Virus record (IMG/VR): IMGVR_UViG_3300025671_000067
Span: 1 to 60,655 of that record
Length of the DNA: 60,655 nt
Reading direction: 5' to 3' (one strand)
Origin: a virus
Lineage: Duplodnaviria; Caudoviricetes
Part shown: positions 1 through 56,625 of the stretch, piece by piece
Layout of the letters: each line of letters opens with the position of its first letter
Numbering within the stretch: position 1 is the stretch's first letter
Translations under genes and position numbers: made by a program
The notes under the pieces: model-generated
Database searches by the model: none
Told to the model about the DNA's origin: nothing
Seen by the model: the letters and a program-made list of their open reading frames with translations, nothing else

Positions 1-3
1 CTT

Positions 4-1338
4 ATGGGTAAGAACTTTCCACGGAAAGAATTAAAAATTATAGACCTGACCCTCCGTATGTTCATCGAACCCGTACTGGATTTAGACCTCGGATTACTTG
101 AACAGCATCTTGAAGACACTAAAGAGCTTAAGGATAAGTTGTTACTGGATGCTGGAGTCGAGAAAGAAGATTTGATGAGCAACCCTAAGTTTGCTGGATT
201 GCTTGAGATTCTGGGGGTCAAACCTCCCACCAAGATTAGCCTCACCACAGGTAAAGAAACGTTTGCCTTTGCCAAGTCAGATGAAGCCTTCAAAGAACTC
301 CAAGAGCATGAAGATGTGCGTGTCCAAACATTGGTCAACGCTCGACTCGGTAACAAAAGCACGTTGGAAGAAACACGTACGCAGCGGTTCATCGATATAT
401 CTAAGCGTGGATTGTTACCCGTTCCTGTCAAGTATTACGCAGCGCACACTGGACGTTGGGGTGGATCTGACAAGATAAACCTCCAAAACTTACCTAGCCG
501 TGGTCCTAACGGTAAGAAGTTAAAGAGAAGTATGATAGCCCCAGAAGGTTACATGATAGTTGACTGTGATTCATCGCAGATCGAGGCTCGCGTGCTTTCT
601 TGGTTAGCAGGTCAGCATGATCTAACCGAAGCATTCAGGAACGGAGAAGATGTTTATAAGAAGATGGCTATGTCTATCTATGCCGTCAAAGAGGAATCTG
701 AGGTAACAAAAGACCAGCGGTTTGTTGGTAAGACCACAATTCTTGGGGCTGGTTACGGCATGGGAGCCGTACGGTTCAAGGATCAGTTGCAGTCATTTGG
801 GTTCGACATAGAACTAGACGAAGCCCGCCGTGTAATAAACATTTACAGAGAAACAAATTTTCACATAGCTAGGTTCTGGAACGACGCCAGCCATACGTTA
901 CGTTGTATGGAACAGGGGGTAGGCTCAGAGCTTGGTATAAAAGGTGTTATAGGGATAGACCCTGCTGTACCTGCGATCATCTTACCTTCTGGTTTACAGA
1001 TGCGGTATGAGGACTTGCGGGGGGAGCAGGGTGAGAAGGGGGTGGAGTATACCTACAAGGTACGACGAGGCCGAAACCGGATATACGGTGGGAAAGTTGT
1101 CGAGAACGTATGTCAGGCGGTAGCGCGTTGCATAATCGGTGAGCAGATGTTAAAAATTGCTGAGCGATACCGCGTTGTACTTACGGTGCATGACTCTGTT
1201 GTGTGCTGCGTACCAGAAGCGGAGGTTCACGAGGCACAACGGTACATTGAAGAGTGTATGCGTTGGTTGCCTGAATGGGCCGATGGTCTGCCCATCGATT
1301 GTGAGTCTGGTATTGGCAAAGCGTATGGAGATTGTTAA
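4..1338 (+). CDS. polA: Family A DNA polymerase, C-terminal part (5' truncated by window edge)
   Basis: HTGRWGG, motif A DSSQIEAR, motif B RFVGKTTILGAGYG, motif C TVHDS; the frame is open to base 1. Confidence 0.95.
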   Translation: MGKNFPRKELKIIDLTLRMFIEPVLDLDLGLLEQHLEDTKELKDKLLLDAGVEKEDLMSNPKFAGLLEILGVKPPTKISLTTGKETFAFAKSDEAFKELQEHEDVRVQTLVNARLGNKSTLEETRTQRFIDISKRGLLPVPVKYYAAHTGRWGGSDKINLQNLPSRGPNGKKLKRSMIAPEGYMIVDCDSSQIEARVLSWLAGQHDLTEAFRNGEDVYKKMAMSIYAVKEESEVTKDQRFVGKTTILGAGYGMGAVRFKDQLQSFGFDIELDEARRVINIYRETNFHIARFWNDASHTLRCMEQGVGSELGIKGVIGIDPAVPAIILPSGLQMRYEDLRGEQGEKGVEYTYKVRRGRNRIYGGKVVENVCQAVARCIIGEQMLKIAERYRVVLTVHDSVVCCVPEAEVHEAQRYIEECMRWLPEWADGLPIDCESGIGKAYGDC

Positions 1339-1664
1339 TGGGTCGGGTAGTTGATCTAGGAAAGTACAGAGACGAAAAGCGATTTAGAGAGGAGCTTGAG
1401 GAAGAGATGAGTACCCTGATGTATTCGGAAGAGATAGAAGAAGGGTCACATTTAGATAATGTTCTGAAAGAGATGGAGGAAGAAGTCATCTCCATATCCG
1501 TACTTAAAAAAGATGACGTGTATATAGTACGTATCCACCACCTAGATTACACACAGGAACCTCCTGTCTTACAGCACATGACTATAAAGCGAAAAGACAT
1601 CCGTGAAGTTGCTAGTTCGTTGTCAGAAATTGATAATTATTTACCAGAGGAAGAGATTACTTGA
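1338..1664 (+). CDS. Hypothetical acidic protein
   Basis: ATG overlaps the polA stop (TAATG); fills the gap to the next gene. Confidence 0.65.
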   Translation: MGRVVDLGKYRDEKRFREELEEEMSTLMYSEEIEEGSHLDNVLKEMEEEVISISVLKKDDVYIVRIHHLDYTQEPPVLQHMTIKRKDIREVASSLSEIDNYLPEEEIT

Positions 1665-2332
1665 GTATTTACCCTTGGTCTTTCAGTAAGATCAAATCTT
1701 TCGAGCAATGTCCTAAGAAGTTTTACCACTTAAAGGTTATTAAGGACTATTCGGAACCAGAAACGGAGGCCATGTATTACGGTACCGCGTTTCATGAGGC
1801 AGCAGAAGAATACGTACGGGATAACGTACGCTTGCCTCCACAGTTTGACTATGCCAAGCCCGCATTGGACGCACTTATCGCTAAACGTGGTAAGAAGTTA
1901 TGCGAATATAAGATGGGTTTGACAGCTAATTTAGAACCATGCGACTTCTTTGCAGATGACGTTTGGTTCCGTGGGATTGCAGACTTAGTGATCCTTGATG
2001 AAGAGACCGAAACTGCTTGGGTGGTGGATTACAAGACAGGTAAGAACGCACGTTACGCAGATAAAGGTCAGTTGGAGTTGATGGCGTTAGCTACCTTCAA
2101 GCACTTTCCTGATGTTAAGACAGTGCGCGGCGGGTTGATGTTCGTAGTGTCAAACGAGTTAGTCAAAGACACTTATGAGTTCAACATGCAGGGTGAGTTG
2201 TGGCGCAAATGGTTGGCTGATTTTACAAATATGGAATCGGCTTATGATAAAGATGTGTGGAACGCTAACCCTAGTGGGTTGTGTAGGGCGCACTGTGTGG
2301 TACTAGAATGCCCGCACAACGGGAGAAGGTAA
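1661..2332 (+). CDS. PD-(D/E)XK (RecB/Cas4-like) exonuclease
   Basis: WSFS..FEQCP N-terminus, GTAFH, RGIADL...VVDYKTG, QLELMA, three C-terminal Cys (LCRAHCVVLECPH). Confidence 0.9.
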   Translation: MSIYPWSFSKIKSFEQCPKKFYHLKVIKDYSEPETEAMYYGTAFHEAAEEYVRDNVRLPPQFDYAKPALDALIAKRGKKLCEYKMGLTANLEPCDFFADDVWFRGIADLVILDEETETAWVVDYKTGKNARYADKGQLELMALATFKHFPDVKTVRGGLMFVVSNELVKDTYEFNMQGELWRKWLADFTNMESAYDKDVWNANPSGLCRAHCVVLECPHNGRR

Positions 2333-2617
2333 ATGCCTTACAAAAACAAGAAAGACAGAAAGAAGCAAAAGAACAAACCAGTCGGTAGTCCAGAGTTCAA
2401 GCGGCGTATGGAGCGGCAACAGGCTCGCCGTGATATGGATAGGACTGGAAGAGATGCAAACAACAATGGCAAGGCGGATAAACGAGAAGGTAAAGACGTT
2501 AGCCATAACAAAGCATTAGCAAGAGGCGGTAGCAATAAAGACGGTGTACGGGTAGAGAGCCGAAGCGCAAACCGTAGCCGTAACTTGAAGAAGAAATCTC
2601 CCAGACGCTTAGCCTGA
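2333..2617 (+). CDS. Small basic HNH-like protein (degenerate HNH nuclease)
   Basis: GKDVSHNKALARGGSN...SRSANRS resembles the phage HNH DVxH-x5-GG-x-N...NR pattern. Confidence 0.6.
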   Translation: MPYKNKKDRKKQKNKPVGSPEFKRRMERQQARRDMDRTGRDANNNGKADKREGKDVSHNKALARGGSNKDGVRVESRSANRSRNLKKKSPRRLA

Positions 2618-2768
2618 TGCGTCTATAAACAACGTGGGTTTTTCGATCCTTACGATTAGGTTAAGTGACGTTTTGAGCCTACAAAAATCAGGTTAGTCCG
2701 TGCACCATAGTAGCATTTTCGCAGACCTAGCCCCATCTGTGGACGAAGCGGGGCTTTTAGGAGGAAAG

Positions 2769-4304
2769 ATGGAAATCATTAACAACAAGGCGCTTCTTTT
2801 GCGCCTTCGTAACCCTCAAAAAGTAACGACTGTTATACCCAACAGTAAAGAGCTTGCAGATAATAAAGTAGTTGTGAAGTGGGGTATCGACGAAGCACAA
2901 GTTCTAAAGAACCTTAACATAAAGGTACCGTCGCCCATCGAAGGTAAGTACAAGTGGACAGGTAAATACGCTCCCTTCGAGCATCAGAAGACTACCGCTT
3001 CTTTCCTTACGCTTAACAAACGTGCCTTCTGTTTCAATGAACAAGGTACCGGTAAGACTGCTAGTGCAATCTGGGCAGCAGACTATTTAATGCAAGAAGG
3101 TTATGTTCGACGTGCATTGGTTATCTGCCCCCTGTCTATCATGGACTCCGCGTGGAAGGCTGATCTGTTTACGTTCGCTATGCACAGGTCGGTAGACGTA
3201 GCGTATGGGTCAGCAGAAAGACGTAAGCAGATAATTAATGCGGGCAGTGATTTCGTAGTAATAAATTATGATGGTGTTGAGATCGTATCGGACGCCATCA
3301 CCAACAACGATTTCGATCTGATCATTGTGGATGAAGCGACTCACTACAAGAACGCGCAGACCAAACGTTGGAAAACACTTAATGCGCTCGTCACTCCTGA
3401 CAAGTGGTTGTGGATGATGACTGGTACACCCGCAGCTCAAAGTCCTTTGGACGCATACGGCATAGCTAAACTTGTTAACCCATCAGCAGTGCCTAGATTC
3501 TTCGGTACGTTCCGTGATCGTGTGATGCACAAGATAACTAACTTCAGGTGGATACCGAAAGAGGACGCTACCGACACAGTGTTTAGAGTGTTGCAACCCG
3601 CAATCCGTTTTACCAAGGAGGAATGCTTAGACCTTCCAGATATGGTGTACACCAAACGTGAGGTAGAGCTTACTCGACAGCAGATCAAGTATTACAAAAT
3701 CCTGAAAGACCGCATGGTAATGGATGCCGCTGGCGAACAAGTTACAGCAGCAAATGCGGCGGTTAACATGAACAAGTTACTGCAAATATCTTGTGGCGCA
3801 GTGTACACCGACAAGGGTGAGTCACTAGAGTTCGACATCAAGCATCGCTATAAAGTCCTACGTGAAGTCATCGATGAGTCCAGTAAGAAGGTGTTGGTGT
3901 TCGTACCTTTTAAGCACGTCATCGACATGCTGGTGGAGAAGTTAAAAAGTGATGGGATTACTACCGAAATTATTAGAGGGGACGTATCGGCTCCTAATCG
4001 AACTGACATATTCAAACGATTTCAGATCAGTGATGACCCCCGCGTTCTAGTAATCCAACCCCAAGCTGCGGCACACGGTGTAACGCTGACAGCAGCAAAT
4101 ACGGTGGTCTGGTGGGGGCCAACAAGCTCACTAGAAACCTATGCCCAAGCCAACGCTAGGGTGCACAGATCGGGTCAAGACCATAAGTGTACTGTGGTAC
4201 AGCTACAAGGGTCTGCAATAGAAAAACACGTTTATAGAATGCTTGATAACAAAATAAACATACATACAAAAATTATAGACTTATACAACGAAATACTTGC
4301 ATAA
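2769..4304 (+). CDS. SNF2-family (SF2) helicase
   Basis: EQGTGKT Walker A, DEATH, MTGTP, HGVTLT, QANARVHRSGQ; start moved to the ATG after the AGGAGG RBS. Confidence 0.93.
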   Translation: MEIINNKALLLRLRNPQKVTTVIPNSKELADNKVVVKWGIDEAQVLKNLNIKVPSPIEGKYKWTGKYAPFEHQKTTASFLTLNKRAFCFNEQGTGKTASAIWAADYLMQEGYVRRALVICPLSIMDSAWKADLFTFAMHRSVDVAYGSAERRKQIINAGSDFVVINYDGVEIVSDAITNNDFDLIIVDEATHYKNAQTKRWKTLNALVTPDKWLWMMTGTPAAQSPLDAYGIAKLVNPSAVPRFFGTFRDRVMHKITNFRWIPKEDATDTVFRVLQPAIRFTKEECLDLPDMVYTKREVELTRQQIKYYKILKDRMVMDAAGEQVTAANAAVNMNKLLQISCGAVYTDKGESLEFDIKHRYKVLREVIDESSKKVLVFVPFKHVIDMLVEKLKSDGITTEIIRGDVSAPNRTDIFKRFQISDDPRVLVIQPQAAAHGVTLTAANTVVWWGPTSSLETYAQANARVHRSGQDHKCTVVQLQGSAIEKHVYRMLDNKINIHTKIIDLYNEILA

Positions 4305-4325
4305 TTAATTTAAGTACACTATATT
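4297..4325 (+). promoter_or_regulatory. Sigma70-like promoter
   Basis: TTGCAT-17 bp-TATATT upstream of RBS GAAGGAG and ATG 4355. Confidence 0.6.
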
Positions 4326-4354
4326 CTACAGTTCGACTAGAGAAGGAGATCGAA

Positions 4355-4762
4355 ATGGAAGAGGATAGTCATTTGTCTGTGGATAAGCTAACCAAGGTTT
4401 ATCTAAAGATAACTGCTAAACGTTCTGAATTAAAGAAGGCTTTTGATGAGGAATATCAACGCCTTTCAGATGCGCGTGACAAAATCAAGTTAGCTTTGTT
4501 AGAGCATTGCAAAGAGCATAACGTCAATAGCGTGAGGACTGAGGAGGGGCTGTTTTACCGAACGGTTAAGCAGAGCTTCTGGACGAACGACTGGGAATCG
4601 ATGTACGAGTTCATACTCGATAACAAGGTACCTGAGTTCTTCGACAAACGCCTCAATCAGAAGAACGTGCGTGAGTTCCTAGAGGCAAACCCCGATAAGT
4701 TACCGAAAGGGCTTAATTCGGATTCAACCTACACTATCTCTGTAAGGAGACCCAAAAAATGA
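4355..4762 (+). CDS. Hypothetical phage protein (coiled-coil N-terminus)
   Basis: Good RBS; position within the replication gene block. Confidence 0.8.
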   Translation: MEEDSHLSVDKLTKVYLKITAKRSELKKAFDEEYQRLSDARDKIKLALLEHCKEHNVNSVRTEEGLFYRTVKQSFWTNDWESMYEFILDNKVPEFFDKRLNQKNVREFLEANPDKLPKGLNSDSTYTISVRRPKK

Positions 4763-5019
4763 GTAGCCCCTTTGTCCCTATCGCAGATGTTGCAAAACAT
4801 TTCAAGGTAAACCAAGCCACCATACGTGGTTGGTTGAAAGCAGGGATCATCCCCAAAAGTACCTATATCCATATAGGTTCAACCTATCGGTTCAATCTGG
4901 CCGCTATCACCGAGGCTTTGACTGCCGCTGAAGATGAGGAAGTTAAACCAAATAGTTGGAATGACATCAGCGGTGATGAAGAACCCGTCCCTCAACTAGA
5001 AACAGATGAAGACTATTAA
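4759..5019 (+). CDS. HTH_17/excisionase-like DNA-binding protein
   Basis: IADVAKHFKVNQATIRGWLKAGIIP...IGSTYRF matches the MerR-like winged HTH pattern. Confidence 0.8.
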   Translation: MSSPFVPIADVAKHFKVNQATIRGWLKAGIIPKSTYIHIGSTYRFNLAAITEALTAAEDEEVKPNSWNDISGDEEPVPQLETDEDY

Positions 5020-5678
5020 TGGGCGAGACACTCAAAAGAATCAGTATACGCAACCGCCGTTTTGAAGGTCTGCCTGAAATAGCGGAAGAATCTGTAAATG
5101 TAGTAGTGGTTGGTGTAGCCTACATGTCCCGTATTTATTACGCGGATGCTTATGACCCTGATAAGGTCGCGCTACCGACTTGCTGGTCTTCAGATACAGA
5201 CACTCCCGCCGTAGATGTTCCAGCAGAACAGAGGCAAGCGGGGCGTTGTTTAGATTGTGTCCACAACATAAAGGGGTCCGGTGCGGGCCAAAGTCGAGCA
5301 TGTAAATTTGTGCAACGATTGGCCGTAGTGATAGAGGATGATCTGGAAACAGTTTATCAGCTACAGCTATCCTCACCCTCTATTTTTGGGGACGCGATTG
5401 GGGTGAACATGCCTTTGAAAGCCTACGCTAGGTATTTAGAGGCGCAGAACACCCCAATAGTCGCTGTGGTGACGAAGATATTTTTCGACCCTAAAAGCGA
5501 CTTACCAAAACTCTTCTTCAGACCTATACGTCCACTAGAAGAGCAGGAGTACGAAACCATACAGACCATGATGAAGCATCCTGATACTACGAAAGCAATT
5601 ACTTTAAATGTAGTTCCACTGGAGGACGCGGGTGCATCACCATTTTCTGAAGTAGATGGCTTCGTTTTTAATGACTAA
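5019..5678 (+). CDS. Cys-containing replication-module protein (possible ssDNA-binding/annealing protein)
   Basis: PTCWS...CLDCVHNIKGSG...RACK cysteine motif; adjacent to the SSB gene. Confidence 0.7.
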   Translation: MGETLKRISIRNRRFEGLPEIAEESVNVVVVGVAYMSRIYYADAYDPDKVALPTCWSSDTDTPAVDVPAEQRQAGRCLDCVHNIKGSGAGQSRACKFVQRLAVVIEDDLETVYQLQLSSPSIFGDAIGVNMPLKAYARYLEAQNTPIVAVVTKIFFDPKSDLPKLFFRPIRPLEEQEYETIQTMMKHPDTTKAITLNVVPLEDAGASPFSEVDGFVFND

Positions 5679-5696
5679 TGTTTGGAGAAAACATAA

Positions 5697-6398
5697 ATGA
5701 CTTATCAAATTAAAGGTGTAGAGGCGCTTTACCCTCGGATTAATCGGACATATAAGTTCGACAGCAGTGAAAACCGAAGCGTTCCGTGTGACCCAACTGA
5801 TGATGGCGCGTCATACGAAATGTCCTTCAAGATGAACGAGACGCAAGCGAAAGCATTAATGACCGCGATGGCTACGGCTTATAAGGAAAAACGTGAGGCT
5901 AAGTGGCCCGAAAAGTTCCCAGTGCCTTTCACCAAAGATGATGACGGTATGTATATCGGTAAGGCAAAACTTAAGGGTGCGTACGGAAAGGATGTTACTG
6001 CAAAGCCGAAGCAGTATGACGCTAAGAACAAGATCCTGCCAGATGATTTCCAACTGACAACTGGAAGTACGGTAAATATCGCTGTTGTGTTAATTCCTTA
6101 CCACATGCGCGACTCTGGGGTTTCACTTCGTTTGCGTGCCGTACAGGTTATCAAATACGTACCTATGCAAGTGTCTTCACCGTTTGAAGAAGTTGATGGG
6201 TTTGACAGTCAGGGATCTACTGAAGATGAAAGCCCGTTCTTTGATCTAGATACCGAATCTAGTTCGGAGGTAGAGGCAGCAGTAGATGATGTGGAGGACA
6301 TCATCGAAGAACCGAAGAAGAAAGCGATGAAAGTTAAAACCGCTGCTCCCAAAGAGAAAGCGGATCTGAGTGACCTTGTTGATGCTTGGGACGATTAG
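5697..6398 (+). CDS. Single-stranded DNA-binding protein (T7 gp2.5-like)
   Basis: PKQYDAK...LTTGSTVNIAV...GVSLRLRAVQVIK OB-fold motif; acidic tail ending AWDD. Confidence 0.8.
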   Translation: MTYQIKGVEALYPRINRTYKFDSSENRSVPCDPTDDGASYEMSFKMNETQAKALMTAMATAYKEKREAKWPEKFPVPFTKDDDGMYIGKAKLKGAYGKDVTAKPKQYDAKNKILPDDFQLTTGSTVNIAVVLIPYHMRDSGVSLRLRAVQVIKYVPMQVSSPFEEVDGFDSQGSTEDESPFFDLDTESSSEVEAAVDDVEDIIEEPKKKAMKVKTAAPKEKADLSDLVDAWDD

Positions 6399-6410
6399 TC
6401 CTAATTAATT

Positions 6411-6434
6411 TGGGCTTTAACAAGAAGAAGCCCA
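6411..6434 (+). terminator. Hairpin after the SSB gene (possible weak terminator or processing site)
   Basis: TGGGCTT/AAGCCCA stem; poor U-tract. Confidence 0.3.
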
Positions 6435-6515
6435 TTCATTCAACAGTATCCACGGCTAGACTAGTCGAAAAGGGCGTGACTCTGCCCCTGCCGTGGTGTC
6501 TTTCGGATCTATCTC

Positions 6516-9347
6516 ATGGAAACAGCTATATTTTTAAAGGAGGCGCTACCGAAAAACGGGTCGTATTGTGTATTTGCATCCAAATCATCTGCCGATAAAA
6601 GATCACAGCAGTTCTTTGATTCCGTAGATGACCTGATTGATGCGGCACAGGACTTGGATACAAAGGGTTATGATGTTTATTTCGCACTAGCTAGTTTCAA
6701 GGAAGCTAACTCACGTAAAGTAGATAACGTACAATCTTTGAAGTCGTTTTTTCTAGATCTTGATTGTGGCCCATCGAAAGATTTTGTATCGCAGAAGGAA
6801 GCGATATCTCAACTAAAGACATTTTGTACTAAATTTAATTTGCCACGCCCTTTAATGATTAACTCTGGGCGTGGTGTCCACGTTTATTGGGTGTTATCCG
6901 AAGCCGTACCTTTAGATGACTGGCTACCTGTAGCCACTAAATTGAAGCAGTTGTGTGCGGATAATAACTTTTTAGCAGATCCCGCTGTCACGGCGGACGC
7001 TGCACGAGTGTTGCGGGTACCCCAAACCCATAATTACAAACCAGACATCCCAGCAGAGGTAGACTTTGTTGGGGCACACCTACCCAATCTTGTTGACTTT
7101 GATTTGTTTTCGAGATCGCTCGGAAATGATGTGATACCAGTTCCCACAAAGAGACTGGATGGAGCCAACGCGGTGATGAACGCAGCGTTGTCAAACCGCG
7201 AGTATCGTTTCAAAGATATCCTACGCAAGACCAATCAAGGAGATGGCTGCACCCAAATACACAATGCGTTAACTAACCCTAACGAGGTATCAGAACCTAT
7301 TTGGCGGGGCGTATTGTCGGTACTGAAAGCGTGTAGCGATGGGTCCAGAGAAAAAGCTCACAAGATCTCTAAGGGATATGACGGGTATGACCCAGAAGAG
7401 ACCGACGCTAAATGGGATAAGTTAACTTCTGACAAACGATACACTTGCGCTAGGTTTGAAGAGATTCAGCCAGAAACGTGTTTACACTGCCCAAATAGGG
7501 GTAAATATAGATCGCCTTTGCATATCGGAAAGCGTGTAAAGGAAGCTACAGAGGAAGAATACGTAGTTGAGGCACCTGCTTTAGATCTACCTAACACCCC
7601 TATTAACACATTCGTTATACCTAAATATCCTTACCCCTACCTACGCGGCTCTAACGGCGGCGTTTATATACGCTCACAGGATTCGGAGGGGAACGAGAAC
7701 GAAGAACGCATTTACCATAACGACCTCTATGTAGTTAAACGCATAGTCGATATAGAACTAGGGGAGTCTATAGTGTTGCGTTTGCACTTACCAAGAGATG
7801 GTGTGCGGGAATTTACGGTACCGCTTACGTCTGTAACTTCTAGAGAAGAACTTAGAAAGAGCATGTCCATGCACGGGGTGGCTATAGCGAAGGTAGATAA
7901 ACTTATGGAATACGTAACAACGTGGGTAAATGAACTACAGGAGAAAGAGATGGCAGATAAAGCTTACAGGCAGTTTGGCTGGATCGATGACGAAGCCACA
8001 GGGTTTGTACTCGGTAACCAGATAATTTTGAAAGATGAGGTGCGGTTTAACCCACCGTCGAAGACTACTATGAGTCTGTTCCCGTACTTTCAACCTGAAG
8101 GTACCTTAGACGAGTGGCGACAAGTTATTGATTTCTACAACCGGCCCGGATTTCAATTACACCAATTTGCTACCTGTGCGGGGTTCGGTTCGGCACTTGT
8201 GCATTTTGTAGATGACATAGCGTGTGCAGCACTACATATTTACAGTAAAGACTCTGGGCTAGGTAAGACCACCGCCATGAGAGCAGCAGCGTCTATATGG
8301 GGTGACCCCGGCGAGCTAGTGATTAATCAAGGCGATACGGGCAACAGCCAGATGAACCGATCCGAGGTGCTGCATAGTTTGCCCTTACTAATTGACGAAC
8401 TTACAAACGCCAAAAGCGAGGCATTGAGTGCCTTGGCTCTGCAATTTACCACTGGTAAACAGAGGAACAGGTTAGTTAGCGGAGGGAACGTAGAGCGGGC
8501 ACGAGGGGAATCATGGAGCTTACTTGCGATAACAACAGGTAATACTAGCTTTATAGAACGTATCCGCTTGAAGAAAGATAACCCTAATGCGGAGGCACAG
8601 CGCATATTAGAAGTACGTGCAGAAAAGCTCTTTAAGGGTTCTTCTGACAAATCAGAAACTGACGAATTCAGTCGCGCATTAGGTAAATGTTACGGGCATG
8701 CTGGACCTATATTCGTTCAGTATGTGATCAACAATGTTGAAGAGGTGAAACGTCTGATCAAAGAGATACAGATCAGGGTAGATAGACGAGCAGAGCTTTC
8801 CTCAGAAAACCGATTCTGGTCAGTGTATGCAACTATGACTTTGGCGGGGGCAGTCATTGCTAGTCAATTAGACCTAATTCGGTTTGACATTCCTGCGCTT
8901 ACAAATTGGGCCATAGATATGCTTAACGATAACAAGTCGAGGGCACAGGATATGGCGGTATCTATTGAACAAACGTTGAATGAGTATGTTAATGAACACT
9001 ACGACAACATACTGCGGATCAAAAGCACCAGCGACCTTCGTAAGCAGGACGGTACGCCTATGGAGTCAATTATTCTCCCAGAAGCTATACCCCGAAACCG
9101 GTTGGTGGCTAGGTATGAGACTGATATAAATAAATTATACCTAGTACCTAAACCGTTGCGGATATGGTGTGGGGAACAGCAGATAAACTATGCGGCATTT
9201 GTACATGACCTTACTGAAAAACTGGGGGCCAAGCGTATAAAGATGCGGCTAAGCAAGGGTACGCCATTAAATATGCCCCCGACAGATGTGTTAGTAGTTC
9301 AGTTCTCTGGAGCTGGTGATGAAGAAGGGAGTATTGAGAACGTATGA
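6516..9347 (+). CDS. Primase-helicase (RepB/AEP-like primase, DUF927 and P-loop domain)
   Basis: FFLDLD, INSGRGVHVYW, DAARVLRVP primase motifs; SGLGKTT Walker A; LLIDELT Walker B. Confidence 0.88.
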   Translation: METAIFLKEALPKNGSYCVFASKSSADKRSQQFFDSVDDLIDAAQDLDTKGYDVYFALASFKEANSRKVDNVQSLKSFFLDLDCGPSKDFVSQKEAISQLKTFCTKFNLPRPLMINSGRGVHVYWVLSEAVPLDDWLPVATKLKQLCADNNFLADPAVTADAARVLRVPQTHNYKPDIPAEVDFVGAHLPNLVDFDLFSRSLGNDVIPVPTKRLDGANAVMNAALSNREYRFKDILRKTNQGDGCTQIHNALTNPNEVSEPIWRGVLSVLKACSDGSREKAHKISKGYDGYDPEETDAKWDKLTSDKRYTCARFEEIQPETCLHCPNRGKYRSPLHIGKRVKEATEEEYVVEAPALDLPNTPINTFVIPKYPYPYLRGSNGGVYIRSQDSEGNENEERIYHNDLYVVKRIVDIELGESIVLRLHLPRDGVREFTVPLTSVTSREELRKSMSMHGVAIAKVDKLMEYVTTWVNELQEKEMADKAYRQFGWIDDEATGFVLGNQIILKDEVRFNPPSKTTMSLFPYFQPEGTLDEWRQVIDFYNRPGFQLHQFATCAGFGSALVHFVDDIACAALHIYSKDSGLGKTTAMRAAASIWGDPGELVINQGDTGNSQMNRSEVLHSLPLLIDELTNAKSEALSALALQFTTGKQRNRLVSGGNVERARGESWSLLAITTGNTSFIERIRLKKDNPNAEAQRILEVRAEKLFKGSSDKSETDEFSRALGKCYGHAGPIFVQYVINNVEEVKRLIKEIQIRVDRRAELSSENRFWSVYATMTLAGAVIASQLDLIRFDIPALTNWAIDMLNDNKSRAQDMAVSIEQTLNEYVNEHYDNILRIKSTSDLRKQDGTPMESIILPEAIPRNRLVARYETDINKLYLVPKPLRIWCGEQQINYAAFVHDLTEKLGAKRIKMRLSKGTPLNMPPTDVLVVQFSGAGDEEGSIENV

Positions 9348-9546
9348 TCTGTCCCCTGATGGGGTTCGGATTGTAATAGACTGGGGGAAGATGAGTGTCG
9401 GTACATCTATATTTGTCCCGTGCATCAATACCCCTGAAACAGTACGTCAGGTTAAGTTAATAACAGAACAGAAAGGCTGGCGTATAGAGACTAGAGTTAG
9501 GATAGAGGATGCAAAACTAGGGGTTCGTATATGGAGAATGTTGTGA
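9316..9546 (+). CDS. Small hypothetical phage protein
   Basis: Overlaps the primase 3' end; WGKMSVGTSIFVPC...GVRIWR. Confidence 0.7.
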   Translation: MMKKGVLRTYDLSPDGVRIVIDWGKMSVGTSIFVPCINTPETVRQVKLITEQKGWRIETRVRIEDAKLGVRIWRML

Positions 9547-9552
9547 TATATT
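9544..9552 (+). promoter_or_regulatory. Extended -10 promoter for the candidate sRNA
   Basis: TGaTATATT, with TTCGTA 17 bp upstream; predicted +1 near G9559. Confidence 0.45.
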
Positions 9553-9558
9553 TTGCTC

Positions 9559-9637
9559 GACAGTTCGTCCTCCTTCTCAATTTCGTTCTGTCATCCTCCT
9601 GCTCCTACGAGCGCCCCCTCTTCGGAGGGGGTTTCTT
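9559..9637 (+). ncRNA. Candidate anti-Shine-Dalgarno small RNA
   Basis: GACAG/CTGTC stem with TCCTCCTT in the loop, second TCCTCCT, GCTC/GAGC stem, then an intrinsic terminator. Confidence 0.5.
9614..9637 (+). terminator. Rho-independent terminator
   Basis: CCCCCTC-TTCG-GAGGGGG followed by TTTCTT. Confidence 0.75.
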
Positions 9638-9660
9638 AACTCCTCATCCAAGGAGCACTC

Positions 9661-9822
9661 ATGACTATGAAACTGACAAGAAGTGACTTGTTACAGGCGT
9701 GGATGACGTTAGTTAAACTGCGCGAAACGAAAAAACTAGATGCGTCTGACGATCAGTTTGTCTTAACTGTTCTAAATATACTAGATAAAGAGCAGCACAA
9801 ACGAATGGAGACAGAGAGCTAG
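9661..9822 (+). CDS. Hypothetical 53-aa protein (not in ORF track)
   Basis: AAGGAG RBS; MTMKLTRSDLLQAWMTLVKLR...RMETES; its stop overlaps the convergent gene's stop on CTAG. Confidence 0.6.
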   Translation: MTMKLTRSDLLQAWMTLVKLRETKKLDASDDQFVLTVLNILDKEQHKRMETES

Positions 9823-12800
9823 TCAGACAACACTATTGGTTCGTTATCTTCTAAATGTTCTTGTAATGCCGTTCGGAACATAGGACTTAGTGCTATACCG
9901 TTGTGTGCGGTGGCAGATGTTTTCATGTGAGATCGCATCGAACGCGCTACCGAATCGGCAGTTATGACTGCTTTCGGGAATCTAGCACCAATACGTTTGT
10001 TGAAGGCCAACATCTCGTTTCTGATTTCTCTCGCTTCTTCGTAATCTTGCATACGCATGGCGATGTAGTACTTCCTGAGTAGCGACGAACGGTTGTTGCG
10101 AATAGTATTTTCGATACGCTTAAGCCCTTGGTTCTCCTCTTGTCGTCTAGCATAGTCAGCAGGTGCAAATCCTACTACTTGAGAGAACAACTGGCCTGTG
10201 GTGATGTCATCAAGGATAGGATCTTTACGTCTGGTGAGTGCGCCCTCTTCTGTATAACGGATTGCTTTAAGGCCATTACGTACCGCCCCCGGCACCATAG
10301 ACTCAATACCTCGCTGCATATCTCCGTTGATAAGTTCACCCGTACCTCGGATAAATGATTTACCTACACTCCATGCAGGGCCACCTAAGTAGTACCCTAT
10401 AGTTTCTTCTGGAGAAGCATCTCGATTGTATCGGTTTGCTTGAAACAACAAGTTAGTAAGAGCTACACGTTGAGATACATCAACATCGAGCAATGCAGTT
10501 AATGCGCCCTTATACCACCCTTCACTGATGTACTTACGTACGATGGTCTCCGCATCGTCTTCATCATCGTCTAAGAACAAGTTTGCGATCATGGTGAAGG
10601 CACCGAACAACGGTAGCCCTTGTACCCCTGCAAAGAACAAAGCCGTTCCATGTACAGCCACTAATTGCCTGAACGCTGCCTTCCTTATTTCAGGATCGTT
10701 CTCACGGTTTAGCATGGTCTTAGCCGCTCGAAGCATGGTGTAGTACATCTGAATACCATACGTCTTGTACATCAGGGCGACTCGACCTATACCCTTCTGC
10801 GCCCATCTGGGAGCAGTCTCTAATACTGAACCGCCGTTTAACTGTTGTGCTTCATATAAAGCGTTTTGAGCAGCAAGTTCTTTTTTCTTAGCTGACGATA
10901 GTTTCTGTTCTTCTGCGGTAGCTCGTTTGGGATCATTTAGTCTGGCTAGTTCTAATTTATATGCAGCCAACATAGCTACTTGACGGTTGTACTGCTCCAC
11001 CTGATGGAACATAAAGGCTGACCAAGAACTTACTCTATCGATAATGTTCTTATCTCGTCCAGAAGAATCTAGACCCAAACTATCCGCAAACAAGGATCGG
11101 TTAAGTTGTCCACGCCCTGCGGCAAGCTGAACTAATGGGAGGATCTCTTCGAGTTCTTTGCGTCTTTCCGCGTACCCTTCAATGTCTTTACGGACAGTGT
11201 AGTTACCCGCTTCATCCATCTCAAACAAATTGTCGATGGAAGGCATAGCAAAGGCGTCTACCGTATCTTGTTTACCGAAAGGGACAATCCCTCTAATACG
11301 TCTACGCCTTGTAGATTTCGACATCAACGTACCAGAGACTAACCCCGCTGCGTCAGTAATCGCTTTACCCGCAGCACGGAAGCCATGTTTACCGCCTAGC
11401 ATAGGTAACACAAAGAGAGGTACTTGCGAGAGGTTAACCAACGCAGACGAAGTGTTAAACCCGATAGTCCATATAAAGGCAGCGCGGTTAGCTGCTTGAG
11501 CGATACCATCTTTAGGAGGACGCATTGCAAAATCAGCACGGGCTACAAGTTCATCTTGTAGGTCTTTGAGAGTACCTTCTTTTTCCCTCATCCGTTGCAT
11601 GGCAGACTTTTCACTATCTGGCATGTCAGGATCAGTGCCGAGTATTTGCTCTCGTAGTTTTGTTATCTTATTAGTGTATTCCAACCGTGTAATTTGTCGC
11701 CCAATGTCGTAGATCTTAGACCGCATAACCTGCGTGTGGTTTTGGTTAAACCCAGCGATACCTTCACGTTTCTGGAAGTTCTTGGCAAATGATGTTTCAG
11801 GTAGAGTTTCTATGAACGAGTTAAGGATATCGTTTCTGACCGCTGCATCTACTTTAGCGGTTTCCATAATCTCCAATACTTCGTTAACGAAGCCGACAGA
11901 AGTAGTCTTTTTGTAAGTCGGGCTATCATTACCGTCGTATTCGTTGTACACCAACTCACCGGCACTATCTCGCTCTATTCTGTTGTCGTTCTCTAAAACA
12001 TTTTCTATGTACTTACGCCGTTCTCTAGGCGTTTCAAACATTAAGAACACAGGTTCAGTGCTATCTGTTGCTTCGTTATAGGCTTGGAAACTAAGTTTGT
12101 AGTCGCCGGATCGCATAAGTGGGAAATACGGATCTACCCTCCCTCTTTCAGTTATCTTGTCGAATACAGACTTACGTAACTTCTCTTTGCTTTCTTTGTC
12201 TATGCTGAGGTCATCAATCCGTTTATTAACTACAGCAAGTAATTCTTTATACAACTTGGCGTAGGAATCGCGCATCCCTTTGTAGACATCTTGCCCACCA
12301 CTTGCTTCGAGCTTGTTCCACCTAGATTGCAGCCCTTTCCATATAGCCAGCTTCTCTTTGTTCTTCTCGTAAGTGCTTCTTGGCTTGGACGGATCGACAC
12401 CCTCTAAAGTACTTTCGGTTATAACTTCATCTAACAGAGGCACAACGTCTTGGTTGTTCTTAACCCAATTATCAACCATCTTCATGGTGCCATCAGCGGC
12501 ATTATCTTTTGTGTTCAGTGCGCCACGCTGTTTTTCCATCAACCGATGCAGCTCTAGACCTAAATCACCTAGTTTCTTGTTGTAACTACCTGCTATGTCT
12601 GCCAAAGCCTGTGAAGGCGAAAAGCCTAAGAAGGCACGGCGTGTCTTACCAGATACTCCACTCTTCAGGAACTTGTCCGCTTGGTTAACAAAGTCTTCCC
12701 GAAACTTCTTAGTGGGTTCTTTGAAGTCTTTCTGAACGTTACCTATTTTCCGCATCAGGTCACGTACTTCTATGTCGGTAGAGTTCTGCAGCAGGTCACC

Positions 12801-15800
12801 CGAACCATATGTGTCAGCAGCAGGGGCTATGATTCTTTGCAGTAGGGCATCTACTTCGGTGAAAACGTCTGTGTTAGATAGTTCAACAGGAGCGCGACCA
12901 ATGAGCTTTTTGAGGAAGTTGCTTATTGTGTTGTAAAAGGCTTGGAGGGCGCTTATGAATTTACCACCCTGTTTTACGTACTCATTACCTTTTACCTGCA
13001 CCTGAATCCGAGCTAGTTGTTGCCTAAACTCTTGGCTACCGTAAGCCTCTGCAGCGAACTCTGCTACATTTTCAGTACCGTTCACGCTTGATAGATCTGG
13101 TTCGACAAGGTTAAACAGTTTAGTTAACTGTTTAGTAACTGGATGCGAGGGGTTCAATAAGATGTTAGCCGTAACAGCATGCGCCATTTCGTGCATCAAC
13201 GTGGATACTGCAAGCCCTTCGCTAACCTCTTCGTTTAGCAGGATTAGATCGTTGAAATGCTTACGATCTTTAGCGTCTGATTTCGTTATATAAATGCCCG
13301 GAACTATCGTGTTATGCCTTCGGCCTTTAGCATCTAGGTATTGACGGTATGCTATGGCAGTTTTCTTATCTTTCAGGGCATAGTAATTATCTTTACCCGT
13401 TAGAGCTTCTGGCTCTGCAGGTACCACGGCTACTTTAGTAGTGCCCACCATTGTAGAGAACTGTTTAGCCAGTCGTTTTATAGTAGGGTTAGCGTCCGTT
13501 TTACTGAGAAGCTCCAAGGCTTCCTTCAAGTTACCTTGCCTTAGTTCTTTCAATACCGGAGCAGGTAGGGGGGTATCAACGCCCTCTTGGAACCTTGGTA
13601 ACCCTAAGTCCTTCTTAACTTGCGATATTATCTCGTTAACAGATCCCGGCTCGCCTTGGTCTATGCGTTTGTTAGCTTCCTTCACTACATCTTCAGGCAG
13701 CGACTCTAACTTAGTACTCTTGGGCTTAGGTCGTTTTTGAGCAACGTCTGTCGGTGGTGGCGTTTTAGTCTTTGTATCTTTAGCTGCTTCAGTTCGTTTT
13801 TTATTAGCTTCTCTTTGCTTTCTAGCCGCTTCCGCTACTCTATTTGCTTCAGACTGATCTCTTAACTCTAATTCTTTTTCAGTAGCAATATCTGCTTGCC
13901 TTCTTAGCTCTGGATCTACATCAGCTAGCGAAGGTTCTACCCCCCTTTGCATTTGCCGTATCATTCTAATTCTTTGCGCTGGAGTAATGTTCCTCCCTTT
14001 ACGTTTAATTTCTGCGGCTGCAGCGGCATCTCTTGCGGCACTTCGACGAGCATCGCTTTCTTGCACCAAAGTTGTTTCAGAGACAGTTGCGCCTTGAGTT
14101 ACGTCACCATCAGTAACTGTTGCAGGGGTAAATTCCGCAGGGGCACCGCGTCGTTCAAGGATACTTAGTTGCTCATCGATTGACTTACCTTTGAGACTTT
14201 GTAGCAGTTCGTCACTATCCTTGACCGAAAGTTTTGGTGCTTGTGGAGCTTCTGTCGGAGCTTCTGTCGGTGCTGCCGCTGGTCCAGCTTTTGCCTTCGC
14301 GGGTGCTACTTCAGGTCTGGCTGGAGGTACTTCTGTTTTCTCAAACGCAAGGTCTATCTGACGTGTTTCGGGTTGACCCAGAAACTCTTTTATTTTGTTC
14401 TTAGTTACAGTATCAGTGACATCAGGGTTATCTACGTATGCTTTTAGTTCCGCATTTAATTCGGAAAGAGGGACTTCTTTCTTCGCCATCAAACGTTGAT
14501 AAATAGGCTTCGTCTTTCGACTACGAGTATCTGTCGGAGCTATACCGATATCTTTAAGGAATTTCTGACTAATTTTTTGAGTTGGTTCTGCAGGAGGGGT
14601 AGGCGTAGGTTTTTTAGCTGCTTGAGCTTCTGCCGCAACAAGTTGTATTGGGAATAAGTCTGTTTGAGGTCTACCCTCTAATTCTTGTTGCGCTGCGGCT
14701 AGGGCTTGTGTTTGGTCAGCAATTTGTCTTTGCCCAATAACTGCAGCGCTGGGCCGATCACTAGAAACTATTTGTGCTTCTGCTTTTTGTCTACGATTCT
14801 CCTCCGCTTGTGCAGCACGTTGAGCTTCTACCTCTGCTTCTATTTGCGCTTTTATAGCATCTACTTCATCTAGTATGTAATTATCCTGAACTTGCTTTAC
14901 GGGTACGGTGTTACCTTCAGCATCTGTAACAAAGTCTCGGGTCTCAAACCCTATTAAGTTTTGAGCTTGAGCTGCTTGAGCAGCGCGTGCTTGTTCTAAA
15001 TTTATGAGTTGAGCTGAAGTACGATCTGCTCCCTGTCTTTGTTCGATAACTTCATCCGAGGGCATATCCCCAAAGGTTTCTTCAGCATCTATAGCAGCGG
15101 TTCTAAGCTGCTCGGGGGTAAAGACTTCTCCCTGAGAAGACACCATATAAGGTTCTGGTTTGTACTCAAGCAGTAGGGTTTCGGTCTGTTCGATTGATTC
15201 CGGTGTTACTTCATCAGGATCAACTGCCCCCTTACCCCTGCTTTTAGGTAATGCTAAATCAAGTAACCCTTGTACTAAACCGCCAACACCTGCCCCATAG
15301 CCAAACGCTTCACCAGTGTCGGTGAACACTCCTTGTTGAGGGTCATAGACACCCCGTTGAATTAGGTTTTGTGCTACTCCTGCCGCAGCTTCCTGTGCAC
15401 CTTCTGCACCAGCCGCTATAGCCGCACGTTTTACGCGAGTAATTGCATCTCTGATACCGCCTTTCCCAATAGCGTCATAGAGATTACCAAGAACTTTAAT
15501 GGGGATTAGTTCAGACAGCCCTACTACAGCACCTAACGCGGTAGCAGTCCCTCTTTCACTTTCAGTGGCACCGGCAGCGCGGGCACGCTCACTAGCTTCT
15601 CCTGCACCTGCACCTACAGCTAAAGCCCCTGCAGCAGGTATCCCAACTCCGGGTATTAATGAAGTGGCTCCAAGACCAACAAAAGAACCTACTGCTTCAC
15701 CGAATTTACCGCCTACGGTGTCTTCTGAACCTACATCAGGGGCAAAGTAACTTTGGGCTGAACGCCCTAGTCCCTGAATGGCTTCCCTAGCTTTAAGTTC

Positions 15801-16049
15801 AGATTCTTCGTCAAGGATTGAAGCACCGCCGAGAGCGGCAGATTCAAGAAGACCTAAAGCCCCACGGGGGATACCTTTACCGAACTCTTCAATTTGATCT
15901 AAGAAGTCAGGTTCTGGGCCTGCAGGGGCAATACTGACAGGTACTCCTCGTAATTTCTTATACGCATTAGCTACGATTTCAAACTCTTCAGTACCTTTTT
16001 TGTCTTCGTTGGCAATTAGCCACTCTGCGTATTTATTTACGCGTGACAT
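9819..16049 (-). CDS. Large polyvalent / internal virion (ejection) protein with zincin metallopeptidase domain
   Basis: 2076 aa; Gly/Ala-rich hydrophobic N-terminus; LMHEMAH (HEXXH) with downstream EFAAE; YFPLMRSG resembles the PLxRFG domain; last gene of the virion operon. Confidence 0.75.
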   Translation of the reverse strand: MSRVNKYAEWLIANEDKKGTEEFEIVANAYKKLRGVPVSIAPAGPEPDFLDQIEEFGKGIPRGALGLLESAALGGASILDEESELKAREAIQGLGRSAQSYFAPDVGSEDTVGGKFGEAVGSFVGLGATSLIPGVGIPAAGALAVGAGAGEASERARAAGATESERGTATALGAVVGLSELIPIKVLGNLYDAIGKGGIRDAITRVKRAAIAAGAEGAQEAAAGVAQNLIQRGVYDPQQGVFTDTGEAFGYGAGVGGLVQGLLDLALPKSRGKGAVDPDEVTPESIEQTETLLLEYKPEPYMVSSQGEVFTPEQLRTAAIDAEETFGDMPSDEVIEQRQGADRTSAQLINLEQARAAQAAQAQNLIGFETRDFVTDAEGNTVPVKQVQDNYILDEVDAIKAQIEAEVEAQRAAQAEENRRQKAEAQIVSSDRPSAAVIGQRQIADQTQALAAAQQELEGRPQTDLFPIQLVAAEAQAAKKPTPTPPAEPTQKISQKFLKDIGIAPTDTRSRKTKPIYQRLMAKKEVPLSELNAELKAYVDNPDVTDTVTKNKIKEFLGQPETRQIDLAFEKTEVPPARPEVAPAKAKAGPAAAPTEAPTEAPQAPKLSVKDSDELLQSLKGKSIDEQLSILERRGAPAEFTPATVTDGDVTQGATVSETTLVQESDARRSAARDAAAAAEIKRKGRNITPAQRIRMIRQMQRGVEPSLADVDPELRRQADIATEKELELRDQSEANRVAEAARKQREANKKRTEAAKDTKTKTPPPTDVAQKRPKPKSTKLESLPEDVVKEANKRIDQGEPGSVNEIISQVKKDLGLPRFQEGVDTPLPAPVLKELRQGNLKEALELLSKTDANPTIKRLAKQFSTMVGTTKVAVVPAEPEALTGKDNYYALKDKKTAIAYRQYLDAKGRRHNTIVPGIYITKSDAKDRKHFNDLILLNEEVSEGLAVSTLMHEMAHAVTANILLNPSHPVTKQLTKLFNLVEPDLSSVNGTENVAEFAAEAYGSQEFRQQLARIQVQVKGNEYVKQGGKFISALQAFYNTISNFLKKLIGRAPVELSNTDVFTEVDALLQRIIAPAADTYGSGDLLQNSTDIEVRDLMRKIGNVQKDFKEPTKKFREDFVNQADKFLKSGVSGKTRRAFLGFSPSQALADIAGSYNKKLGDLGLELHRLMEKQRGALNTKDNAADGTMKMVDNWVKNNQDVVPLLDEVITESTLEGVDPSKPRSTYEKNKEKLAIWKGLQSRWNKLEASGGQDVYKGMRDSYAKLYKELLAVVNKRIDDLSIDKESKEKLRKSVFDKITERGRVDPYFPLMRSGDYKLSFQAYNEATDSTEPVFLMFETPRERRKYIENVLENDNRIERDSAGELVYNEYDGNDSPTYKKTTSVGFVNEVLEIMETAKVDAAVRNDILNSFIETLPETSFAKNFQKREGIAGFNQNHTQVMRSKIYDIGRQITRLEYTNKITKLREQILGTDPDMPDSEKSAMQRMREKEGTLKDLQDELVARADFAMRPPKDGIAQAANRAAFIWTIGFNTSSALVNLSQVPLFVLPMLGGKHGFRAAGKAITDAAGLVSGTLMSKSTRRRRIRGIVPFGKQDTVDAFAMPSIDNLFEMDEAGNYTVRKDIEGYAERRKELEEILPLVQLAAGRGQLNRSLFADSLGLDSSGRDKNIIDRVSSWSAFMFHQVEQYNRQVAMLAAYKLELARLNDPKRATAEEQKLSSAKKKELAAQNALYEAQQLNGGSVLETAPRWAQKGIGRVALMYKTYGIQMYYTMLRAAKTMLNRENDPEIRKAAFRQLVAVHGTALFFAGVQGLPLFGAFTMIANLFLDDDEDDAETIVRKYISEGWYKGALTALLDVDVSQRVALTNLLFQANRYNRDASPEETIGYYLGGPAWSVGKSFIRGTGELINGDMQRGIESMVPGAVRNGLKAIRYTEEGALTRRKDPILDDITTGQLFSQVVGFAPADYARRQEENQGLKRIENTIRNNRSSLLRKYYIAMRMQDYEEAREIRNEMLAFNKRIGARFPKAVITADSVARSMRSHMKTSATAHNGIALSPMFRTALQEHLEDNEPIVLSD

Positions 16050-46990: not shown

Positions 46991-47206
46991 TTATCCCGCA
47001 GATACGGTCAAAACGCCTGAGTTACTCCATAGCTGCCCAGCAACAGTTGGATCAGAAGTCGGGAGGTCAGAAAAGATGATTACGCTGTTTGTACCATCGT
47101 ATGTAATAGAAATATTTTCTGTAACAATACCGGTATTTGCAGCTTTGGTGATGTCCTTAAAGCCATTCTCGGAACGGACTGGACCTTGGAACGTAGTGTT
47201 AGCCAT
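46991..47206 (-). CDS. Small virion/head protein
   Basis: MANTTFQGPVRSENGF...LPTSDP..AGQLW; AGGAG RBS. Confidence 0.75.
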   Translation of the reverse strand: MANTTFQGPVRSENGFKDITKAANTGIVTENISITYDGTNSVIIFSDLPTSDPTVAGQLWSNSGVLTVSAG

Positions 47207-47270
47207 TGTTATCTCCTGTCTCGGCTAGTGTCAGTTGCCCTATGCAACTGTCAGGGATAGATCGATCTTA
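47207..47270 (-). ncRNA. Candidate Mu-gpT-DE-like structured RNA element
   Basis: CAGTTGC/GCAACTG hairpin and flanking CCTG/CAGG pairing, immediately downstream of a gpT-like capsid gene. Confidence 0.4.
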
Positions 47271-47310: not shown

Positions 47311-48225
47311 TTAAGCTCCGGGTGAACCGAAGATTCCAAGAGGATCTGAGACCCCGAAGGAATATCGCTCACGAGCCTTATAGCGGCTGTTGCCCGTATC
47401 GAAATCAGCGTCCATAGACGTAGACATCGGCGTACGAACAAAGTGCTTGAGGCCGTTCGGAACATCAGTCATCAAGAACCATGCGTCGGTATCCGTCAGA
47501 TAATGGTTAACTGTGTAACCTTCTGGGATTGAACCGTTGTTACGGATGGCGTTGATGTCGTTGTCAGCCGTACCCACACGACCTTCAGTTTCGAGCAAAC
47601 GAGTCGCTACGAACTGGAGATTGGGCGGAATAACTAGCTTACGAGGCTTGGCTGCAATCAAGAGGCCACGCTCATCGGTCCAACCTGCAATCTGAATAAC
47701 GGCAGCTTCAAGAGAAGTTTCGTTAAGATCAGCCGCAACAGCGGGACGGTTTGAGTTAGAGCCACCTGATACCAACGGGTGGTCCGTTGCACACAGTACT
47801 TTGCCGTCACCATAAGTCGGGTTGCCGGAACCAGTGAACGCTTGGTTCAACACGGTTGCACCTTTAACCTGCTTGGTGTACGCCATAGCACGAGCCAGCG
47901 CCTTCGTATAACGTGCAGACAATGAGTCATACAAGTTATCTTCAATAGCTTCTTCCGTAATTGAGAAGCCCATTGCGATGGTTTCGTGTGTGTAACGTGC
48001 AGTCCATGCTTCTTGAGCATTGTCATACTCAATCGCAGCACCTTCGTTTTTAACGGGTGCAGCTGAGAAGCCAGACAGCTTGGTTTCTTCTTCAAAAGAG
48101 CGATCAGAAGATTCAGTTTCGTAAATCTCTGCATGCTCTTCACCATACTTAGCGTACTCCATTCCAAACAGTGCGTTTAGACCGGGAAGGAGTTCTTTAA
48201 GTAGTTGGGCGCGTGAAATAGCCAT
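47311..48225 (-). CDS. Major capsid protein (Mu gpT-like)
   Basis: MAISRAQLLKELLPGLNALFG...ITEEAIEDNLY...KARERYSFG; position and downstream terminator. Confidence 0.9.
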   Translation of the reverse strand: MAISRAQLLKELLPGLNALFGMEYAKYGEEHAEIYETESSDRSFEEETKLSGFSAAPVKNEGAAIEYDNAQEAWTARYTHETIAMGFSITEEAIEDNLYDSLSARYTKALARAMAYTKQVKGATVLNQAFTGSGNPTYGDGKVLCATDHPLVSGGSNSNRPAVAADLNETSLEAAVIQIAGWTDERGLLIAAKPRKLVIPPNLQFVATRLLETEGRVGTADNDINAIRNNGSIPEGYTVNHYLTDTDAWFLMTDVPNGLKHFVRTPMSTSMDADFDTGNSRYKARERYSFGVSDPLGIFGSPGA

Positions 48226-56493: not shown

Positions 56494-56499
56494 CCTATG

Positions 56500-56525: not shown

Positions 56526-56536
56526 GTCTCAAATTT

Positions 56537-56620: not shown

Positions 56621-56625
56621 GTAAA

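Follow-up and report, generated by a model that had tools for sequence, protein, structure and literature searches.

Does the gap that closes the early gene block of this phage encode an RNA of its own, and what would such an RNA do? The window, by which we mean the whole stretch of DNA analyzed, is a linear phage record of 60.6 kb with an estimated completeness of 78%. Its plus-strand gene block (55891-60655 together with 1-9822) encodes an AAA ATPase, a DUF2201-type protein, a DNA polymerase, an exonuclease, a helicase and a Gp2.5-like SSB, as well as a 943-aa primase/helicase, a 75-aa protein and a 53-aa protein, and the structural genes lie on the minus strand (9819-55519). The RNA element considered here is placed at the very end of the early/replication block, within the 114 nt that separate the TGA of the 75-aa gene (9544-9546) from the start codon of its 53-aa neighbor (ATG at 9661), some 180 nt short of the point where the block converges with the late genes. 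For the large terminase, the closest matches are in the Pelagibacter phages HTVC023P (46% identity) and HTVC027P (45.5%); tblastn of the primase against cultured phages gave a best identity of 29% or less, blastn of positions 8500-10500 with settings for distant similarity found no match in the phage collection, and the 75-aa protein matched nothing from cultured phages at better than E 0.3. Elsewhere in the plus-strand block, ORFs 59756-60250 and 60147-60653 (+) overlap and cover successive parts of phrog_1314 (positions 10-147 and 161-297), the former also matching Pfam DUF2201_N; they look like a single gene that a frame change or a sequencing error has broken in two.

Our answer has two parts. 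Comparative sequence evidence supports a discrete, conserved, structured, non-coding plus-strand RNA gene with a promoter-like -10 element and a terminator. That this is a phage sRNA gene roughly 75-80 nt long, extending from about 9559 to about 9637 (+), with pairing of anti-Shine-Dalgarno (anti-SD) type as its most likely action, is the reading toward which we lean, with a little more belief than doubt. The element and its neighbors are laid out in the window as follows:

9319-9546 (+): conserved 75-aa gene that immediately precedes the RNA element; the promoter-like signal overlaps its last codon and stop
9544-9552 (+): extended -10 promoter-like element TGaTATATT (TGATATATT), read from the sequence
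9559-9592 (+): 5' stem-loop SL1 of the MFE fold, with stem GACAG/CTGTC (9559-9563 with 9588-9592) and UCCUCCU in the loop (9568-9574)
9593-9600 (+): single-stranded linker AUCCUCCU, a CU-rich anti-SD-like seed with UCCUCCU at 9594-9600
9601-9612 (+): small variable hairpin GCUC/GAGC, from the fold of the window
9613-9637 (+): intrinsic terminator, with a 7-8 bp G+C stem, a UUCG loop and a weak UUUCUU tail (hairpin 9613-9632)
9640-9655 (+): hairpin of CUCCU (9640-9644) with AGGAG (9651-9655), hiding the SD of the next gene
9661-9822 (+): 53-aa ORF, found in near clades only, with a 4-nt overlap with the stop of the convergent 2076-aa late gene (9819-16049, -)

Most of these parts had been proposed in a first-pass annotation of the window, and as a description of the sequence it held up well. 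The extended -10, the predicted start at G9559 (the first base of the stem, 7 nt downstream of the -10) and the GACAG/CTGTC stem are all present where it had placed them, and the MFE fold reproduced the loop motif, the second unpaired UCCUCCU, the small hairpin and the UUCG terminator. The RNA from 9559 has an MFE of -29.5 kcal/mol (z = -4.69), and none of 200 shuffles folds equally well; the composite pattern GACAG-N10-30-CTGTCRTYCTCCT occurs once in the window and in none of 100 shuffles.

The same annotation had suggested an alignment of the syntenic gap from related phages, and we found the same arrangement after the 75-aa orthologue almost everywhere. We searched 73 related loci in viral contigs, retrieved with the primase protein (49-100% identity), using a covariance model (R1) that was built from a MAFFT alignment with only two specified helices. 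R1 has a single match in the window (9542-9638, +, 88.3 bits), with no second copy in 60.6 kb, and matches once in each of 57 other loci, on the plus strand and just after the 75-aa gene. The element is thus found in 58 of the 73 sources searched, which amounts to 58 of the 59 with enough flank, and these matches reduce to 42 distinct sequences. Fourteen of the 15 sources without a match end before or within the element. The remaining one, L048 (5996-6030, compared with L049), has ample flank and keeps the 75-aa gene and the -10 hexamer; it has lost the RNA body and the terminator, and its convergent late ORF reaches and overlaps the 75-aa gene. This could be a natural variant or an assembly chimera. 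In 80 related contigs, the 298,417 bases surrounding the ATPase gene contained no R1 match at E <= 1. Run on 80 of at least 120 pattern matches in bacterial genomes, the model gave none better than E 0.72, the pattern scan itself being too unspecific to be informative on hosts or prophages. A search of public RNA sequencing runs listed none that contains the stretch, and one RNA run from the same sample had zero cover over 9000-10200; these results are uninformative for either outcome.

The gene for the 75-aa protein invariably precedes the RNA gene directly. Orthologues of the protein were recognized in 33 loci, and 12 residues are invariant across 26 aligned sequences (DLxPDG...W...S.F..C...G...WR). 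It has no Pfam (E <= 0.1) or PHROG match, and its AF2 model, a confident one (pLDDT 85.8), gave no clear match in fold searches (Foldseek best E 0.36; VIA best Z 5.5). The R3H/KhpB-like rows in the Foldseek output (E 0.36-0.64) are too weak to make an RNA chaperone of it, and we rejected that idea.

Covariation in the related gaps, the structural test suggested at the outset, came out in favor of both helices. In the alignment fitted to the model (42 sequences), pairing holds in 98.2% of cells and compensatory changes are seen at 9 of the 12 pairs; none of 500 shuffles reaches this, and no slid register approaches the observed pairing. The SL1 stem (98.5% paired, compensatory changes in 3 of 5 pairs) and helix 2, the terminator (97.9%, 6 of 7 pairs), both contribute. 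Because fitting to a model favors the structure, we made the same count on the MAFFT alignment alone: 90.5% of cells are paired (91.1% in the SL1 stem), as compared to 49-59% in slid registers, and four pairs have compensatory changes. None of 500 shuffles reaches this paired share or the covariation score, and 72 of 500 have at least as many compensated pairs. From the raw MAFFT alignment, RNAalifold recovered the terminator only. When the sequences are folded singly, the terminator hairpin appears in all 42 and the 5' hairpin in 40, the exceptions being the most reduced members (L068 and L070). The SL1 stem takes the forms GGCAG/CUGCC, GAUAG/CUAUC and AGCAG/CUGCU besides GACAG/CTGTC, whose commonest pair is kept in 34 to 37 of the 42 rows at each position. 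Among clades the spacing between its arms, that is, the SL1 loop, varies from 7 to 31 nt, so we read the inverted repeat as an RNA hairpin rather than a DNA operator of fixed spacing (dimeric). The small hairpin is replaced by longer hairpins or by none in other clades. No ORF is conserved at the element on either strand, and because the indels in its loop and spacer are not multiples of three, we take the element to be non-coding.

The promoter-like signal is conserved together with the structure. Among the 42 distinct homologues, T1 and A2 of the hexamer TAnnnT are invariant and T6 is kept in 38, with positions 3-5 varying; hexamer and stem are separated by 6 nt in 33 sequences and by 7 nt in the other 9. 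The TG ahead of the hexamer is present in 41 of 42, although this conservation is partly confounded because the TG and part of the -10 context overlap the coding sequence and stop codon. The 75-aa gene ends in TGA in 41 of 42, and in the window overall TGA accounts for 18 of 59 stops, TAA being commonest. A conserved TG-n-TAnnnT is the pattern of a sigma-70 -10 element with a TG extension. A simple -35/-10 scan reported no promoter at the element because the -35 is poor (TTCGTA). The element appears, then, to have a promoter signal of its own at a fixed distance from the first helix, as would be expected of an independent sRNA gene. A near-consensus sigma-70 promoter (TTGACA-17-GATAAT with TG) is found at 57062-57090 (+), upstream of gene 57182, and from it we take the phage to be read by the host polymerase.

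What is most constant between the two helices is a short pyrimidine seed. Of the 42 distinct sequences, 38 have CUCC in the linker, no more than 14 nt downstream of SL1, the linker reading AUCCUCCU, GUUCUCCU, UUUCUCCU, ACCUCCC and similar; the other four comprise two with CUCUCU tracts (CUCUCUUUCUCU, no CUCC) and two whose first loop carries UCUCCC. Forty sequences have a motif, and its minimum unpaired probability is at least 0.6 in 37 of them. The loop motif is less constant: it is present in only 28 of 42 (CCUCC in 22), and 14 lack CUCC in the loop altogether, so that of the two anti-SD motifs first proposed as the core of this RNA, the single-stranded second one stands as a conserved feature and the loop one fails as a family-wide motif. 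Loops of the far clades read CACCUCC, which we take to be the 16S anti-SD core. A conserved, accessible seed is what an independent base-pairing sRNA would present, and the element appears to carry one.

An intrinsic terminator, as would be expected of an sRNA, is predicted at the 3' end, with a weak tail in the window's own clade. A U-tract of at least four is found in 25 of 42 sequences, and the 17 weak-tailed ones are those of the near clades, in which 16 distinct sequences are followed, 21-24 nt after the element on the plus strand, by an ORF of 46-53 aa with an SD. Most far-clade members have strong tails of U6-7 and no downstream plus-strand gene. In 22 distinct far-clade sequences (e.g., L045 at about 6123, L061 at about 6123 and L044 at about 2307), the giant convergent late gene has its stop between -2 and +14 nt from where the U-tract ends, so the terminator region is common to both directions of transcription. 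A strong UUCG-loop terminator with a T8 tail is also present at 56499-56518 (+), after gene 55891-56493.

One could therefore envision an element at the operon end, part of a 3' untranslated region and without function in trans, whose hairpins and terminator end and stabilize the transcript of the replication operon and shield it from the late operon that converges on it, the CU stretch being incidental or acting only in cis. The exact position at the convergent junction and the proximity of the late stop to the U-tract in those 22 far-clade sequences fit such a role, the terminator is the strongest and best-covarying part of the element, and the -10-like signal overlaps a stop codon and may be partly constrained by coding. 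However, a plain terminator needs no conserved 5' hairpin at a fixed 6-7 nt from TAnnnT, nor would it account for the persistence, in 38 of 42 sequences, of a single-stranded CUCC amid variable bases, or for a TGA stop kept in 41 of 42 despite the prevalence of TAA in the window. We regard this explanation as unlikely, though it deserves to be taken seriously.

Alternatively, the element could be the 5' leader or attenuator of the small gene at 9661-9822, tuned by the weak-tailed terminator and the SD-hiding hairpin. In the near clades the circumstances are suggestive: the 16 sequences with a downstream ORF have the weak U-tail, and an ACUCCU...AGGAGU hairpin over the downstream SD recurs in these loci with variable loops. 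Most far-clade members lack a downstream plus-strand gene and yet retain the promoter, hairpin and CUCC seed, so a leader role would be only an add-on in some clades, and as an account of the whole family we find it improbable. For the window's clade, the weak U-tail and the small gene that follows suggest partial read-through, and the element may there double as the leader of the 53-aa gene.

Ribosomal protein S1 has a preference for pyrimidines, and the linker might serve as a decoy whose pyrimidine tract titrates S1 or another host RNA-binding protein. The conserved part is indeed short, made of pyrimidines only and single-stranded, two members have CUCUCUUUCUCU without CUCC, and no specific target is conserved. 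Yet CUCC (38 of 42) is preferred over mere pyrimidine richness, which points to base complementarity with GGAG, and we consider a decoy very improbable. It is scarcely credible that the locus acts at the DNA level, as a replication origin or as an operator formed by the inverted repeat, or that it supplies minus-strand ribosome-binding sites (RBSs). GACAG/CTGTC is conserved in sequence besides pairing, and replication genes adjoin; however, the arm spacing is variable, the U-tract is on the plus strand only, and no minus-strand ORF starts at the motifs (in near clades an ATG follows GGAGG at 0 nt and opens a frame of 5 codons, and far clades have no ATG). The minus-strand reading, which the first-pass annotation had itself named as a refutation, was rejected on these grounds.

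We thus return to an sRNA that pairs with SD sequences. Host RNA polymerase would start at the extended -10 overlapping the stop codon of the 75-aa gene and produce a transcript that opens with a protective 5' hairpin, then exposes the CUCC seed and finishes with the intrinsic terminator; release from the operon transcript, at its 3' end, may be a further source of the RNA. Within the clade of the window an extra CCUCC would be displayed in the loop of the 5' hairpin. The seed would pair with purine-rich SD regions of phage mRNAs, host mRNAs or both, and translation would be lowered. Any RNA containing CUCC pairs with strong RBSs.

The complementarities from which specific targets had been proposed are real as sequence matches. 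Positions 9567-9577 are the exact complement of AGAAGGAGGAC at 58634-58644, the ATPase RBS, an 11-mer that occurs only once in the window; 9567-9575 is complementary to 59743-59751, the RBS of the VWA gene; 13 of 15 nt match before ATG 4355; and the second motif resembles the RBS of gene 57182, with CAGGAGG in common. When the CCUCC core is held fixed and the loop flanks are shuffled, 5.9% of 2000 controls reach a match of at least 11 nt to some start region, so the ATPase match, with P of about 0.06 given the core, is not clearly more than chance. Three start regions have matches of at least 9 nt, as compared to 0.60 expected (P = 0.036), and five have matches of at least 8 nt, as compared to 2.1 expected (P = 0.10). 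For target scoring across 65 crudely called start regions, we used seed-restricted hybridization with accessibility terms, because duplexfold of the whole sRNA gave unrealistic long duplexes. The predicted ranking places ATPase gene 58650 first (-11.8 kcal/mol), late gene 46401 second (-10.9) and gene 4355 third (-10.0), and early and late genes are mixed below these three.

Pairing with the ATPase start region is predicted at -19.7 to -20.8 kcal/mol in near clades and at -7.0 to -10.3 in three others, and the ATPase gene had no match in five further records; we rejected this start region as a family-wide target, strong pairing being confined to near clades. Complementarity of the flanks to predicted targets is not kept across clades. 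For the start region of the 4355 orthologue, the own sRNA pairs better than those of others (-12.96 vs -10.79 kcal/mol; P < 0.0005 by permutation). Own pairs score better than cross pairs for three of six neighboring genes, most strongly for 4355, and the other three genes show no significant effect, in a test that is confounded by shared ancestry. At one position facing this start region, the far clades have G:C (L045), G.U (L058, L061) and A:U (L065, L066). In near clades the 5' flank of the loop varies (UUCG, UCCG, ACCG), and the 4355 start region shows no compensating change. In the window, at 4332-4354, the SD of gene 4355 lies in the loop of a short inverted repeat, UUCGA...UCGAA, and near-clade orthologues have UUCGAU...AUCGAA around the SD. 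An idea that seed type (UCCUCC or UUCUCC) tracks the SD type of the clade (GGAGG or GGAGA) was unsupported, the gene calls being crude. With an 11-nt match at P of about 0.06, a late gene ranking second and strong ATPase pairing in near clades only, the claim of specific targets is unsupported.

The first-pass annotation had proposed that the RNA acts at the switch to late expression, a role that went unsupported here. The late gene and the element have no predicted terminator between them on the minus strand, so late transcription could yield antisense RNA to it. One could picture a phage-made mimic of the 16S rRNA 3' tail that serves as a general mask of SDs early and in the middle of infection and is then silenced automatically, in a duplex with antisense RNA from late read-through, an extension of the anti-SD reading that we find improbable.

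Whether the element belongs to a known family was asked with cmscan against Rfam, which holds cuckoo-type models and a C4 model. No family was found at the site in the window at the gathering threshold or in 9400-9800 at E <= 10, the latter giving only two chance-level matches (ceN28, E 1.4; isrB, E 4.2), and ten relatives gave no match at the gathering threshold; the Rfam check suggested at the outset thus came out negative for the window and these relatives. We regard it as a new putative phage sRNA family, absent from Rfam and previously uncatalogued. The Rfam scan did find a full-length Mu-gpT-DE RNA (RF03012) at 47204-47256 (-), whose 67.4 bits exceed the gathering score (49); it is flanked by the major head gene (47311-48225) and the next late gene.

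Type I 3'-UTR-derived sRNAs, such as MicL and DapZ, have an internal promoter, and the element resembles them in that its promoter-like signal falls within the upstream coding sequence or at its end and its terminator is shared with the mRNA; these sRNAs form a class rather than a homologous family, and the element is known from comparative evidence alone. Lambda OOP is, like c4, an antisense-type regulator of one neighboring transcript in temperate phages. The element shares with P1/P7 c4, lambda OOP, PreS and AsxR/AgvB that it is a short phage-encoded RNA. It differs from c4 and OOP in that it is antisense to no gene, its anti-SD seed is generic and the phages that carry it form an uncultured clade. 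A c4-type antisense RNA was considered and rejected, there being no Rfam match at the site and no gene opposite the element. The c4 RNA of P1/P7 is described as pairing around the RBS of the ant mRNA through its loop sequences (PMC12197685).

The comparison originally drawn was with cuckoo/CcsR RNAs, which are reported to consist of 2-4 adjacent hairpins with CCUCCUCCC in each loop, C-rich loops proposed to occlude RBSs (PMC4615179), and which lie on the alphaproteobacterial chromosome, co-transcribed with a gene for a DUF1127 protein (PMC8034643). The element is like these RNAs (RSs0680a, SmelC397-type) in its CCUCC anti-SD-like loop motif and its place directly downstream of a small protein gene (PMC4615179; PMC8034643). 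It is unlike them in that the window has one loop with UCCUCCUU, the second motif being an unpaired linker, that CCUCCUCCC never occurs and loop CUCC is missing in 14 of 42 members, and that it is phage-borne and single-copy, with an upstream protein that has no Pfam family. Since the layout of CCUCCUCCC in every loop (PMC4615179) is not found here, membership fails and the comparison stands as an analogy only. RsaE/RoxS, 6C and the UCCC loops of RNAIII likewise expose C/U-rich motifs that are proposed to pair with G-rich SDs of several mRNAs (PMC4615179; PMC6486639; PMC6158497). Unlike the element, they are chromosomal and belong to other families with other architectures, without Rfam homology to it. 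The likeness to cuckoo, RsaE, 6C and RNAIII is, by analogy, functional only.

In the review PMC12197685 and the literature searched, the phage sRNAs described are mostly from temperate coliphages and prophages. None with an anti-SD or C-rich seed was found in the literature searched, the 38 uncharacterized sRNAs in the supplement of PMC12197685 lying outside this comparison.

The regulatory RNAs of virulent and environmental phages are almost unexplored, and the element described here is carried by a phage clade whose large terminase is closest to that of HTVC023P-type pelagiphages (46% identity). The 42 sequence variants, with their alignment and covariance model, allow viromes and metatranscriptomes to be searched for it directly. 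If the RNA were a mimic of the 16S tail silenced by late transcription, it would be a built-in RNA timer common to a clade of abundant uncultured marine phages. If the anti-SD mechanism is true, the element would represent a simple means by which these phages tune translation globally.
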